From: a virus
Strand: one strand, 5' to 3'
Virus genome (UHGV): UHGV-0057520
Length of the DNA stretch: 30,871 bases
In this document: positions 26,594 to 30,541 of the stretch, piece by piece
Position numbering within the stretch: the stretch's first letter is position 1
Layout of the letters: every line of letters starts with the position of its first letter
Notes under the pieces: generated by a model
What the model was told of the DNA's origin: nothing
What the model saw: the letters and a program-made list of their open reading frames with translations, nothing else
Database searches by the model: none
Position numbers and translations under genes: made by a program

Positions 26594-27078
26594 CTATCTG
26601 ATATTACTGCTACTGTTGCATGTTACCGTGTTTCCAAATCCTGAATTGCAGTTTGTATATGTGTCAACGCGTGTTGGGTAAGGTTGAGTTATAACAGGCT
26701 GGCGCGCTTTTTGCTCGATCGCTTGCATTGTGTTTACAGCCTGATAATTCAATAAAGCCTGCTGGAATGCTTGGCTTTGTGCTATTTGTTGTGCTTGTTC
26801 TTGGCTTTGTAATTGAACATAAAGATTCTGAAGTTCAAGTCTTGCCTGTGTGTCACTTATCTTGCCTTCATCGACACCTTGCCCGAGCATCTTCGCAGCA
26901 AGGACATACAGCTTAGGTGTTGGTGCTGATGCCATGCGAGAGTCGTTCTTCAAGCTGGCATCAAGGCAATTAGCCATATCGCTAAGCTTTGGATAGCGTT
27001 GCTCGCAACTTGCCTGATAGTCGCTTACTTTTGCGCACCCAGCCAGCAGAAGCGGGATAATTAACAGTGATTTTTTCA
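26594..27078 (-). CDS. lipoprotein, about 161 aa mature-region Gln-rich (candidate exclusion or conversion factor)
   Basis: ORF track 26594..27130; likely start is the ATG at 27076-27078 giving MKKSLLIIPLLLAGC (signal peptide and lipobox); opposite strand to the flanking late genes; Gln-rich helical segment then Cys-containing C-terminus. Confidence 0.6.
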
Positions 27079-27113
27079 TATAATTAACTCTCCTTAGTTT
27101 TGCGCAGGATACC

Positions 27114-27479
27114 ATGAAAAAAGTTAACATTGGAAACGTACCAAAGATGCTCGTTCCGCTCTTTGAGAGCGGTACAATTGTGTTTTGTAGAGACTTTCCA
27201 GAATGGCAACGCCTGCATCAAAAACTTGGCGTTGACGTGCATGACTCGGACGCCAACGGAGCGTCTCATACAATGAGTAGCGAGAATGGTGTTTTGCATG
27301 TGATAGGCGTGTTCAATGGCAAACTATCTACTATTGCCCATGAGTGCGCTCACATGGCATTCGATATCTGCTCAAGGGTAGGTGTTGATGTTGAACCAGG
27401 AAGAGCCAACGAGACTTACTGCTACTTAATGAGCAGGCTTGTTGAGTTCTGCGAGCGACATATCAAAAAGCCGGAGTGA
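27114..27479 (+). CDS. small HExxH protein, possibly ImmA/IrrE-like (M78) zinc metallopeptidase
   Basis: 121 aa; HECAH motif followed about 15 residues later by RANETYCYLM, resembling the HExxH...E.EAN.FA signature of ImmA/IrrE domains as I recall them. Confidence 0.5.
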   Translation: MKKVNIGNVPKMLVPLFESGTIVFCRDFPEWQRLHQKLGVDVHDSDANGASHTMSSENGVLHVIGVFNGKLSTIAHECAHMAFDICSRVGVDVEPGRANETYCYLMSRLVEFCERHIKKPE

Positions 27480-27763: not shown

Positions 27764-27786
27764 ACCCACCTTCAGGTGGGTTTTTT
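27764..27786. terminator. bidirectional rho-independent terminator at the 3' end of mnt
   Basis: ACCCACC-TTCA-GGTGGGT hairpin flanked by AAAAATT upstream and TTTTTTG downstream. Confidence 0.7.
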
Positions 27787-28023
27787 GTACAAATCCTTCA
27801 GCGTATCAAACACCATCTTCTTAACAAGCTCTGACTGCTCATCAGCGATGCGTTCCGCATCGTCTCGATAGCCTGAAATTTTGGATGGCTTTGATACAGC
27901 ATCAGTCACTATCTGAACTAATTCTGAATTAAGAGAGCGGCCATTGGATTTGGCTCGCTGTTTTAGTTTTTCCTTTAATTCGTAAGGTAGCCGCAGATTA
28001 AATTGCGGGTCATCTCTTCCCAT
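27772..28023 (-). CDS. mnt: Mnt repressor (ribbon-helix-helix, P22 immI-type)
   Basis: 83 aa; NGRS.NSEL.QIV.DA.SKPS...GYR.DAER.ADEQSELVKKMVFDTLKDLYKK is near-identical to P22 Mnt as recalled. Confidence 0.85.
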   Translation of the reverse strand: MGRDDPQFNLRLPYELKEKLKQRAKSNGRSLNSELVQIVTDAVSKPSKISGYRDDAERIADEQSELVKKMVFDTLKDLYKKPT

Positions 28024-28087
28024 TCTTGATGCCTCGCTTTTGTGAGTGGATCGGCATCTTATTATCTGCTGATTGCATCCTCAATAA

Positions 28088-28100
28088 GACCACGGTGGTC
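28088..28100. promoter_or_regulatory. Mnt operator-like palindrome (O_mnt), likely overlapping a rightward promoter
   Basis: GACCACGGTGGTC is a perfect 13-bp palindrome sharing the CCACGGTGG core of the P22 mnt operator as recalled; lies between mnt and the tailspike start. Confidence 0.55.
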
Positions 28101-28170
28101 GTATTTTTTTGATTAATAATGCATCACTGCGGCAATGCTGCGGCGATTCCTTGTATCTGGAGCAAATTAA

Positions 28171-30162
28171 ATGACAGACATTACAGCCAATGTTGTAGTG
28201 AGCATGCCTTCGCAACTCTTCACTATGGCGCGTTCTTTTAAAGCCGTAGCTAATGGCAAAATTTATATCGGTAAAATTGACACTGACCCGGTAAATCCTG
28301 ATAACCAGATTCAGGTCTATGTTGAGAACGAAGATGGTTCTCACGTTCCTGTTGCACAGCCAATCGTCATCAATGCCGCTGGGTATCCAGTATATAACGG
28401 ACAGATTGCCAAATTCGTAACTGTGCAAGGCCATTCTATGGCTGTTTATGATGCATGTGGTGCGCAGCAGTTCTATTTTCCAAATGTGCTGAAGTATGAC
28501 CCGGATCAGTTAAGGCAGGAGTTAGCAAGTTCAGGTGATGATCTTGGAGATGCATTAATAGCAGTAAAACAACCATTCACCTTGTCAATAAGAAGGACGC
28601 AGCATCAAAAAAATGCCGAGCACATTAGTGTTAGTGATTTTGGTGCAAAAGGAGACGGCATAACAGATGATACTGTAGCAATTCAAAATGCTATTAATGC
28701 AGTACCAGAAGGGGCTATACTTGGATTTTATGGTGGTGAATTTGTTTTTGATAAGGTTGAATTGCTTAAGCCAATAACATTGGTTGGTGATGCAACGTTA
28801 ATTCACAACGGATTTAGAATAAAATCTAGCAGAATACGATCACTTTTATCTGGTGTTCAGAAATGCAAGGATTACTCCGAGTCTTCAAGAGCATTTTATT
28901 GCTATGCAAATGAAGACCAAAGAGATTATGACGATATTCAGATTTTGTTTAATAGATTTGAAGGTTTCTTTTACTCTACGACATTTGTTGCAAAAAACTA
29001 TTATTTGGAGAATGACCCTAATTCAAGAACTGTCAAAAATACAAAAGTAATAGGATGTACATCAGTTGCTCCTGATTCTGTAAATGCCGGTCATTTTCAA
29101 CATATAGGCGTTACAAATGCTGAAACATCACATAACTCAACTTATGGCGGACAAAATGCAACATCATACAACTTCATTAACCAGAATGGATTTGTAAGGA
29201 TTATAGGAAATTATGACCATAACAATAACTATGGTTCATGTGAGCTTGAGAACTCAATGGTGAGTAACTCAGTCATATCATGTAATACGTTTTCGTCATA
29301 TTTATGGGTGGATGATACAAGCAATGTTACTATTTCTGGAAATACAGTTTCATCAAGGATCAAAGTAACATCGCAAACTGACGATGTTCATAATATAACC
29401 ATATCAGCAAATACCACAAAACGGATTACTATAGAGCAATTTGGAGAATCTCCGACAGGTCTGGTATATGGTGCATTAATTTCCTGTAACACTATTACTG
29501 GCGACAGTGATGGAAGTTCAGACATTTTATGTACGTCACTTGTTACAGGTGAAATTTCATCAAATTATTGTCATGGATCAGAAAAAAATATATCAATTGT
29601 CCGCCTGGATTCTTCTGATATAACTGTTAGAAACAATAAAGGAAACAAAGGATTACTTACAATAAGTAACGATGGTGGGAGGATAATTGAATATGGCAAT
29701 GATTCTATGGTTCTGTCTGGAAGCATAGATAGCAGACATATACATAATTTATTACAACCAGACACATCGTATTTAGATCTACCGGGGAAATATCTGCACG
29801 GAACTAAATATACTGGCAGTATCCCCCCCGGTTCCACAGGAACTGTATCACTTCAAATACCATCAGGGGCAAGCCTTGTTTTCAGGGGTGTTTCTATATG
29901 GGTTCTAATTAGAGATGTTAGCAATAACAATATATCGTCATTCAGAATTGATGGTTCATATAGAGTTGTTGGTGGAAGTGTTGGTCTTAGTTTTGCTGAT
30001 GCTTATTCGAAACTCGGGGTGGATGCAAACTCTATAACAGTGTCAAACAATAACAGCACTTCTGACAATATCAGCATAGCAATTAAAAACACAGATTCAT
30101 CAAAAACCCTTCAGGTTACTGTTATGCCGGAGGTTTCAAGCAGGTTAGGTATTGAGGAATAG
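28171..30162 (+). CDS. tailspike: P22-type head-binding N-terminal domain fused to a different, AT-rich receptor-binding domain
   Basis: 663 aa; first ~110 residues ([11 protein letters not shown]...[20 protein letters not shown]...VLKYDPDQ) match P22 gp9; the rest carries beta-helix/pectate-lyase-like signatures ([18 protein letters not shown]) and is Asn/Ser-rich. Confidence 0.85.
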
Positions 30163-30190
30163 CATCATATATAATTATTTTAATGTTAAT

Positions 30191-30217
30191 GCCGCCTTCT
30201 TGTTGGCGGCTTATTTG
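30191..30217 (+). terminator. rho-independent terminator after the tailspike
   Basis: GCCGCC-TTCTTGTT-GGCGGC hairpin followed by TTATTTGT. Confidence 0.6.
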
Positions 30218-30238
30218 TGAAAATCGAATGAGTTATTT

Positions 30239-30541
30239 ATGATGAATATAGAAGTTGATATAACACCAATTCTTCACGCACTTTGCGCTGTTGTCGCACA
30301 AGTTCTGGTTGGTCTTTTTACCGGAAACTGGGCTTACGGTGCGATAGCCGGTTGTACGTTCTTCATTGCGCGTGAACACACCCAGGCAGAATATCGCTGG
30401 ATTGAAATGTTCGGGCATGGCAAGCGTATGAATATGCCGTGGTGGGGTGGTTTTGATCCACGCGTGTGGGATGTAGGAAGCCTTATGGATTTTTCTTTCC
30501 CAATTATCGGATGCTTATTGGTATGGATTCTTGCATCGTAG
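30239..30541 (+). CDS. small membrane protein, 100 aa, downstream of the tailspike
   Basis: Two hydrophobic helices flank a Trp/His-rich loop (EYRWIEMFGHGKRMNMPWWGGFDPRVWD); no family recognised. Confidence 0.45.
   Translation: MMNIEVDITPILHALCAVVAQVLVGLFTGNWAYGAIAGCTFFIAREHTQAEYRWIEMFGHGKRMNMPWWGGFDPRVWDVGSLMDFSFPIIGCLLVWILAS

Follow-up and report, generated by a model that had tools for sequence, protein, structure and literature searches.

A P22-like Escherichia coli prophage tailspike built from an exchanged beta-helix cassette, with the K7/K106-type group 2 capsule as its candidate receptor

The 30,871-nucleotide (nt) virus genome UHGV-0057520, referred to here over its full length as the window, carries a gene for a 663 amino acid (aa) tailspike (28171..30162, + strand, ATG start in the list of open reading frames (ORFs)) of a Lederbergvirus-type (P22-like) Escherichia coli prophage. 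Sequence comparison resolves its product into a P22/Sf6-type head-binding domain joined via a short neck to an exchanged beta-helix module, and the exchange is well resolved, with both junctions of the cassette mapped to base level. Tailspike modularity of this kind is a textbook phenomenon and the protein is already present in databases, where identical and near-identical proteins carry the NCBI label 'phage tailspike protein'; what is new here is the precise mapping of the cassette boundaries and a putative assignment of the receptor to the K7/K106 capsule. Taken as a whole, the explanation that we regard as reasonably probable is that of a cassette-built P22-like tailspike whose likely substrate is the K7/K106 group 2 capsule rather than an O-antigen. 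The more specific proposal, that the module is a depolymerase for the E. coli K7 capsule (or the K7-like K106) circulating as a cassette among at least three podovirus anchor types, we rate at slightly better than an even chance.

Three parts can be distinguished in the protein: an anchor, a neck, and a beta-helix with a C-terminal domain. The head-binding (particle-anchor) domain spans aa 1-113 (28171..28509, +), ends in the residues KYDPDQ (aa 108-113, window positions 28492-28509) and is matched over all 113 profile positions by PF09008 Head_binding (E=4.4e-66, 220.7 bits against a cut-off of 24). The proposal of an earlier sequence-only reading that the first ~110 residues correspond to the head-binding domain of P22 gp9 is thereby confirmed, with 75.9% identity to P22 over aa 2-113 and a higher value, 91.1%, to Sf6. 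At the DNA level the anchor is 88-92% identical to HK620, Sf6, CUS-3 and Gally, and it is only from nt 1 to ~340-406 that the gene matches P22-like phages (86-92%). Divergence from P22 past KYDPDQ, also proposed in that reading, is evident from alignments to PDB sequences, which end at aa ~116 for P22 gp9 chains but reach aa 218 for Sf6 gp14 (E=4e-82). The neck, or linker (aa 114-150; 28510..28620, +; 39.8% GC), is helical or disordered and of low confidence in an AlphaFold2 model; it is identical from aa ~118 onwards in the metagenomic protein P0101, about half of it is kept in Sf6 gp14, and it is recognizable only at the motif level in a form of the tailspike that has an epsilon15-type anchor.

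The AlphaFold2 model, a monomer of aa 110-663 built on 30 relatives (numbering offset +109), has a mean predicted local distance difference test (pLDDT) score of 89.8 and a predicted template modelling (pTM) score of 0.79, and comprises the poorly ordered neck, a long beta-helix and a C-terminal beta-sandwich. The predicted helix is of the right-handed parallel type looked for in a P22-like receptor-binding part (aa 151-516; 28621..29718, +) and has a cap motif at its start, in keeping with the beta-helix signatures previously noted in the sequence. The beta-sandwich (aa ~534-656; 29770..30138, +) is all-beta, corresponds to model residues ~425-547 with pLDDT mostly >90, and lies within the module shared with the Uetakevirus prophage phiv142-3. 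Fold searches return beta-helix tailspikes and glycanases; the Foldseek matches are generic tailspikes at 10-15% identity, including those of Acinetobacter phages, Sf6, HK620 and CBA120 (TSP2), with the phi92 colanidase in a mid-ranking position only. Homology of the C-terminal ~550 aa to the P22 endorhamnosidase was not detected by sequence (past aa 116) and that enzyme is absent from the top fold matches, meaning that the lengthwise alignment which would speak against an exchanged receptor-binding part was found by neither type of search. The pectate-lyase-like PF12708 match (43.3 bits against a cut-off of 27) covers only positions 2-63 of the 213 in the profile and is confined to aa 152-209, alignment of the family profile to PDB sequences is limited to the N-terminal cap motif, and NCBIfam gave nothing past this motif, its rhamnogalacturonidase model scoring 19 bits against a cut-off of 500. 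The family models phrog_13893, which represents the phiv142-3-type receptor-binding domain, and phrog_20231 ('tail protein') match aa 140-632 (E=8.5e-140) and the protein from end to end (E=3e-255), respectively. Five acidic residues, D349, E358, E360, D381 and D382 (29215..29316, +; NYD...YGSCELEN...WVDD), occupy invariant columns in the alignment of 30 relatives at 22-60% identity and are candidates for lining the active site. Allelic variation was observed next to this putative active-site motif, where residue 353, adjoining the nearly invariant Tyr354, is Asn in the window (29227-29229) and Ser in the P22-anchored copy of E. coli Ecol_881 and in P0075, P0101 and P0113; the same four have Ala where the window allele has Thr271 (28981-28983).

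Composition sets the receptor-binding part apart from the anchor. Asn and Ser together account for 22.2% of aa 151-663 but 11.5% of the anchor (aa 1-113), and for 7-17% of the products of 13 further large ORFs in the window, in agreement with the Asn/Ser-rich character first ascribed to the C-terminal part. A shift to AT-rich DNA had been placed at the KYDPDQ linker; the shift is real and far beyond chance, but GC content declines in a graded manner from 44.2% (nt 1-339 of the gene) through 39.8% (nt 340-447) to 35.9% (nt 448-1992), and the location is therefore only approximately right. The best-fit low-GC block (28660-30275) has 35.2% GC with flanks at 44.1%, and no other 1.5-kb stretch in the window (mean 47.3%, standard deviation 3.7%) has so low a GC content.

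The module is common to epsilon15-like (Uetakevirus) prophages: from nt 448/453 to 1992 the gene is 98.4-98.6% identical to EC.W1-9 and phiv142-3. Ungapped alignment to phiv142-3 delimits the exchanged cassette at 28623..30483 (+), which is 98% identical overall to both phages and has abrupt junctions. At the left junction, identity to phiv142-3 rises from ~0.4 to 0.95-1.0 at 28623 (aa 151), within ISV|SDFGAKGDG and ~115 nt 3' of KYDPDQ. The stretch 28623-30402 contains 23 mismatches (98.7% identical), and a further 13 fall in the 81 nt to 30483 (~84%), after which similarity vanishes. As identity continues past the end of the tailspike, the cassette takes in its stop codon and terminator together with the greater part of the gene that follows, a predicted 100-aa membrane-protein gene (30239..30541, +; phrog_1443, function unknown) in which the right end of the cassette lies and whose last ~18 aa are unlike the phiv142-3 copy. 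Many lambdoid and P22-like phages whose receptor-binding domains are of other kinds encode a homologue of this protein (80-88% aa identity) 3' of the tail-fibre or tailspike gene. We considered the downstream protein as a domain-specific partner of the module and rejected this because it is common beside other receptor-binding domains; its gene probably serves as the right-hand homology arm. In the EC.W1-9 homologue (L001 3418-5546), a 1-base indel separates an 'eliminase' coding sequence from a short 'hypothetical protein' coding sequence, and represents either an error in sequencing or a frameshift that inactivates the gene.

Modular exchange of the receptor-binding domain, as proposed at the outset, is substantiated by the occurrence of the same module at 98-99% nucleotide identity behind both epsilon15-type and PF18668 (TSP1/Gp66-N) anchors. 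The latter, a third anchor type, is that of P0101, in which the shared part begins at aa ~118, and two left junctions (aa ~118 and aa 151) are therefore in use. Homology to the phiv142-3-type domain extends along the whole of the beta-helix and C-terminal domain, P0113 shows 98% identity across 100% of the query, and relatives at 34-62% identity carry T7-tail-fibre, tail-collar or TSP1/Gp66 anchors, or a C-terminal S74 chaperone. The tailspike allele of E. coli SFAD3 is a block mosaic of the P22-anchored and epsilon15-anchored forms, suggesting that recombination has taken place repeatedly. No sign of recent conversion between the two co-resident copies was seen in Ecol_881, where 19 of 1,540 sites distinguish the P22-anchored from the epsilon15-anchored copy, a difference typical of the two forms in general. 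Recombination would use the conserved flanks as homology, namely the ISV-x-DFGAKGDG cap or the sequence following the anchor on the left and the downstream membrane-protein gene on the right, and co-resident prophages with both anchor types would supply the opportunity.

The exact chimera is common in E. coli, to which all of the >100 protein clusters at 98-100% identity belong, one of them represented on 202 contigs. In a set of 5,426 complete E. coli genomes the domain occurs in 37: behind a P22 anchor in 10, behind an epsilon15 anchor in 32 and behind both in five. Co-occurrence of the two forms in half of the P22-anchored genomes (5/10) compares with 32/5,426 genomes having the epsilon15-anchored form overall and greatly exceeds what would be expected (P~1e-9, relatedness ignored). 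The P22-anchored hosts represent at least four integration sites and include diverged backbones (IR53017 and VTB96816v are 98.4% identical at gal-tol). The chimera gene is broken by the insertion sequence (IS) IS1A in three complete genomes, SCZE5, ECJXMCRH7 and XH993 (NZ_CP051222, NZ_CP067342 and NZ_CP019361), of which SCZE5 and XH993 are one clone, and in these genomes the chimera-bearing prophage is decaying.

The chimera hosts have a capsule locus in common. Region 2 of the group 2 kps locus in strain LD67-1 encodes a DUF6270 protein, a 920-aa glycosyltransferase, wecC, wecB and two more transferases, and its gene order and gene lengths match both K7 and K106 of the kTYPr catalogue (PMC13171606 supplement), between which the sole difference is in the 920-aa transferase (90.8% identity). 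This type of region 2 is rare, being present in 56 of 5,426 complete genomes, and it was found in all 10 P22-anchored hosts, in 11 of the 27 hosts having only the epsilon15-anchored form and in 21 of the 37 domain hosts overall. The association between domain and capsule has an odds ratio of ~200 (hypergeometric P=3e-34), based on prophage carriage with kinship ignored, and since no phylogenetic correction is applied the P-values overstate independence.

O-antigen type, as read from the wzx/wzy names given by the Prokaryotic Genome Annotation Pipeline, is by comparison heterogeneous. The 10 P22-anchored K7/K106-positive hosts span O1, O83 and O2/O50, types exemplified by Ecol_881, LD67-1 and SFAD3, respectively, and all three O83 hosts as well as the O2/O50 host are K7/K106-positive. 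Between Ecol_881 and LD67-1 the tailspike gene has 0 mismatches in 1,992 nt, while their flanks diverge on both sides, the dacD-side flanks differing by 0.7-0.9% and in gene content beyond tmaR; a single clone with a switched O-antigen is accordingly not supported. The O1 and O2/O50 clusters carry the rhamnose genes rfbBDAC and the O83 cluster does not. A receptor-binding protein of the phiv142-3 type (>=95% identity) has been reported from prophages of O1, O5, O51 and O102 strains without any serogroup being assignable, leading the authors to guess at a shared K-antigen of the hosts (PMC10408124). Together, these comparisons suggest that the receptor-binding domain does not track one O-serogroup. 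Because the hosts share a rare K7/K106-type locus and not one O-antigen, the capsule is the likely target, and the earlier suggestion of a polysaccharide receptor different from that of P22 is both supported and sharpened by host genomics, a K7/K106-type capsule rather than an O-antigen being the best candidate. Also consistent with a capsule is the presence of a 46%-identical relative in phage St11Ph5, whose resistant host mutants have an unchanged lipopolysaccharide (LPS) profile (PMC6393563). K1 was rejected as the shared capsule receptor, as the LD67-1 kps locus has no neu genes and the 'K1 genes' of strain DE142 were assayed only as kpsF, kpsE, kpsC and kpsM, which are common to all group 2 capsules.

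A number of observations weigh against the capsule as receptor. Region 2 of the K7/K106 type is lacking in 16 of the 27 hosts with only the epsilon15-anchored form, and both capsule-negative hosts that were inspected, RS571 and KN13-4, have other capsule clusters. That of KN13-4 is another group 2 region 2, and RS571 has a different, IS5-flanked cluster at the yghD-side kps site with a truncated, frameshifted kpsM-like remnant beside IS5 (L017 13371-14725), which suggests an IS-mediated replacement of the capsule locus with retention of the epsilon15-anchored prophage. We rejected a single replaced locus as the explanation for all capsule-negative hosts, however, as the RS571-type cluster is present in 17 genomes and the domain only in RS571 among them. 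Type O1 is enriched as well, comprising at least 13 of the 37 hosts as opposed to 92 of 5,426 genomes (1.7%) overall (O83 comprises 3 of 37). The capsule-positive hosts are partly related, 500111 and LD67-1 being 99.75% identical across gsp-kps and SCZE5 and XH993 belonging to one clone. The receptor assignment is purely correlative, and the predicted capsule type would be either K7 or K106. Given the capsule-negative hosts, the relatedness and the use of carriage in place of host range, an O1-based reading and a lineage artefact stay as rivals.

The first of these holds that the module is an O-antigen depolymerase for O1, and perhaps also O2/O50, that the remaining hosts switched O-type after lysogeny and that the capsule link is a by-product of lineage. 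In addition to the O1 enrichment, this would account for the seven O1 hosts among the 16 that are capsule-negative and for the rfbBDAC genes and DUF1972 transferase found in both the O1 and O2/O50 clusters; it is also in line with the general O-antigen specificity of Lederbergvirus and Uetakevirus tailspikes (PMC10408124) and with the position of the sbcB-dacD prophage only ~17 kb from gnd in a recombination-prone region. We nonetheless consider it unlikely, as an identical tailspike gene resides in an O83 host whose prophage flanks are unlike those of the O1 host on both sides, the O83 cluster is devoid of rhamnose genes, and the three O83 hosts and the O2/O50 host are all K7/K106-positive. 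Moreover, all 10 P22-anchored hosts have the K locus and only three were found to be O1, and the further hosts reported in the literature are O5, O51 and O102 (PMC10408124).

Less probable again is that the receptor is some other common glycan, such as the LPS core, enterobacterial common antigen or colanic acid, with the serotype links reflecting shared ancestry. None of the serotype markers is common to all 37 hosts, several of which are related, phrog_8280 (labelled 'colanic acid degradation') matches aa 1-427, and St11Ph5 has a weak effect on rough E. coli 4s mutants (PMC6393563), all of which would be compatible with such a receptor. A ubiquitous receptor is not, however, expected to enrich a single rare capsule locus 200-fold, or to leave 10 of 10 hosts capsule-positive when these represent at least four integration sites and include diverged backbones. 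Colanic acid itself was rejected as the substrate implied by the phrog_8280 label, as the tailspike bears no similarity to WcaM, a colanic-acid protein of the host, and the phi92 colanidase is not among the top fold matches. Finally, on deletion of the phiv142-3 gene orf6 the avian pathogenic E. coli strain DE142 grew less well both in serum and in medium limited for iron, and its transcription of iutA fell, while orf6 transcription is raised in serum (PMC7724020), but it is highly improbable that the gene is mainly a lysogen fitness factor for iron acquisition and serum growth as claimed from these data, given its complete virion-anchor domain and tailspike fold, its tailspike position in the late operon, its swapping between phage lineages as a receptor-binding cassette, its disruption by IS1 in three genomes, and a reported phenotype that has no mechanism and could be indirect. 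The iron-uptake claim for orf6 does not conflict with a role in the virion.

With the K7/K106-type capsule as the preferred receptor, a mode of action can be proposed by analogy to P22 and Sf6. Three copies of the tailspike would form a trimer with the N-terminal domains docked on the tail, and the beta-helix would bind and cleave a surface polysaccharide, letting the particle reach the outer membrane. The substrate would be the group 2 capsule made by the K7 or K106 kps locus, which is predicted to encode synthesis of UDP-N-acetylmannosaminuronic acid. Nothing relevant to a sequence-defined K7 depolymerase was found in the literature searched, and the assignment, if correct, would provide the earliest K7-type capsule depolymerase known from its sequence in that literature. 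It would also explain why a 2023 study was unable to link the phiv142-3 receptor-binding protein to an O-serogroup (PMC10408124) and would provide a second example, after the K1-specific CUS-3, of a capsule-targeting P22-like coliphage. The prediction, which concerns one rare capsule type (K7/K106) of extraintestinal pathogenic E. coli, is concrete and cheap to test; if true, it would yield a sequence-defined K7-type depolymerase for use in typing capsules, in predicting the hosts of phages and in engineering phages or anti-capsule enzymes.

The genomic setting of the tailspike gene is that of a P22-like phage. The window matches the P22-like coliphages CUS-3, HK620, 720R6 and Kapi1 over long stretches at 95-96% identity and is collinear with the first three of these, with DNA-transfer proteins followed by a Mnt-family repressor and the tailspike. 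As in P22-like genomes, the tailspike gene closes the block of virion genes, past the ejection-protein genes and the immI (mnt) region. Located 5' of it are the genes for the ejection proteins, three small ORFs whose function is unknown and, in divergent orientation, a gene for a Mnt/Arc-family repressor (27772..28023, -; PF03869 Arc, E=3e-22; PF11423 Repressor_Mnt, E=2e-18) that is outside the exchanged module. The repressor gene directly adjoins the tailspike gene, with neither an arc nor an ant gene between the two, and differs in this respect from the classical P22 immI region, in which arc/ant genes separate mnt from the tailspike gene. A small divergent gene occupies the equivalent position in the epsilon15-like relatives. 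Between the ejection-protein genes and the immI-like region is a 178-aa ORF (26594-27130, -; phrog_6067) whose product is lipoprotein-like at the N-terminus (LLAGC) and rich in Gln in its middle part, and for which no match was found in Pfam or NCBIfam; P22-like phages often place accessory or exclusion genes at this location. An antisense ORF of 117 aa (28081-28434, -) overlapping the start of the tailspike gene is most likely spurious. A terminator-like hairpin (30191..30210, +), consisting of GCCGCC-loop-GGCGGC followed by TTATTTGTG, lies 3' of the tailspike stop codon within the cassette. A promoter scan was uninformative, shuffled sequence giving more matches. The prophage of Ecol_881 is 99.9% identical to the window in the tailspike gene and 99.8% identical over the final 7.2 kb of the window, and is integrated in the sbcB-dacD interval with its integrase ~17 kb from gnd and the O-antigen cluster. 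In the sbcB-dacD version of the prophage (Ecol_881, LD67-1 and SFAD3), the prophage end is identical, and host DNA on the two sides differs between strains by 0.7-3.5%.

Among known systems, P22 gp9 has the same gene position in a P22-like genome and a head-binding domain with the same KYDPDQ end, but does not align past aa 116, and its endorhamnosidase is not among the top fold matches. Sf6 gp14 (PDB 7SG7, 2VBK) is closer in that the neck and beta-helix cap are also homologous, to aa ~218, and the same trimeric-tailspike architecture may be expected here by analogy; its beta-helix body is, however, unrelated in sequence (15% identity by Foldseek) and is that of an O-antigen endorhamnosidase. 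The non-phage A-module of the mannuronan C5-epimerase AlgE4 (PDB 2PYG) has sequence similarity only in the N-terminal cap. The tail protein of the G7C-like phage St11Ph5 (host E. coli up11, O5) and the fBC-Eco01 tailspike belong lengthwise to the same family (45.7% and 52% identity, respectively), and the unchanged LPS of St11Ph5-resistant mutants fits a non-O-antigen receptor; these are lytic phages with other anchors, and at such divergence the specificity may differ. The design of the chimera is that of CUS-3, a K1-specific P22-like prophage in which a head-binding domain (90% nucleotide identity, nt 1-359) is combined with a capsule-specific module, which in CUS-3 is an endosialidase acting on polysialic acid and here is a pectate-lyase-like beta-helix in a host whose inspected locus is without neu genes. 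The closest counterpart is Orf6 of phiv142-3 (QGF19612.1), also represented by the EC.W1-9 'eliminase' and by E. coli prophage proteins labelled 'glycosyl hydrolase family 28-related protein', with a module that is 98.7% nucleotide-identical from aa 151 to the C-terminus and a shared terminator and most of the membrane-protein gene. It differs in its N-terminal ~197 aa, which form an epsilon15-type anchor in place of the P22 head-binding domain and Sf6-like neck, and in its hosts, which have several capsule types, whereas the present chimera is found in K7/K106-type hosts only.

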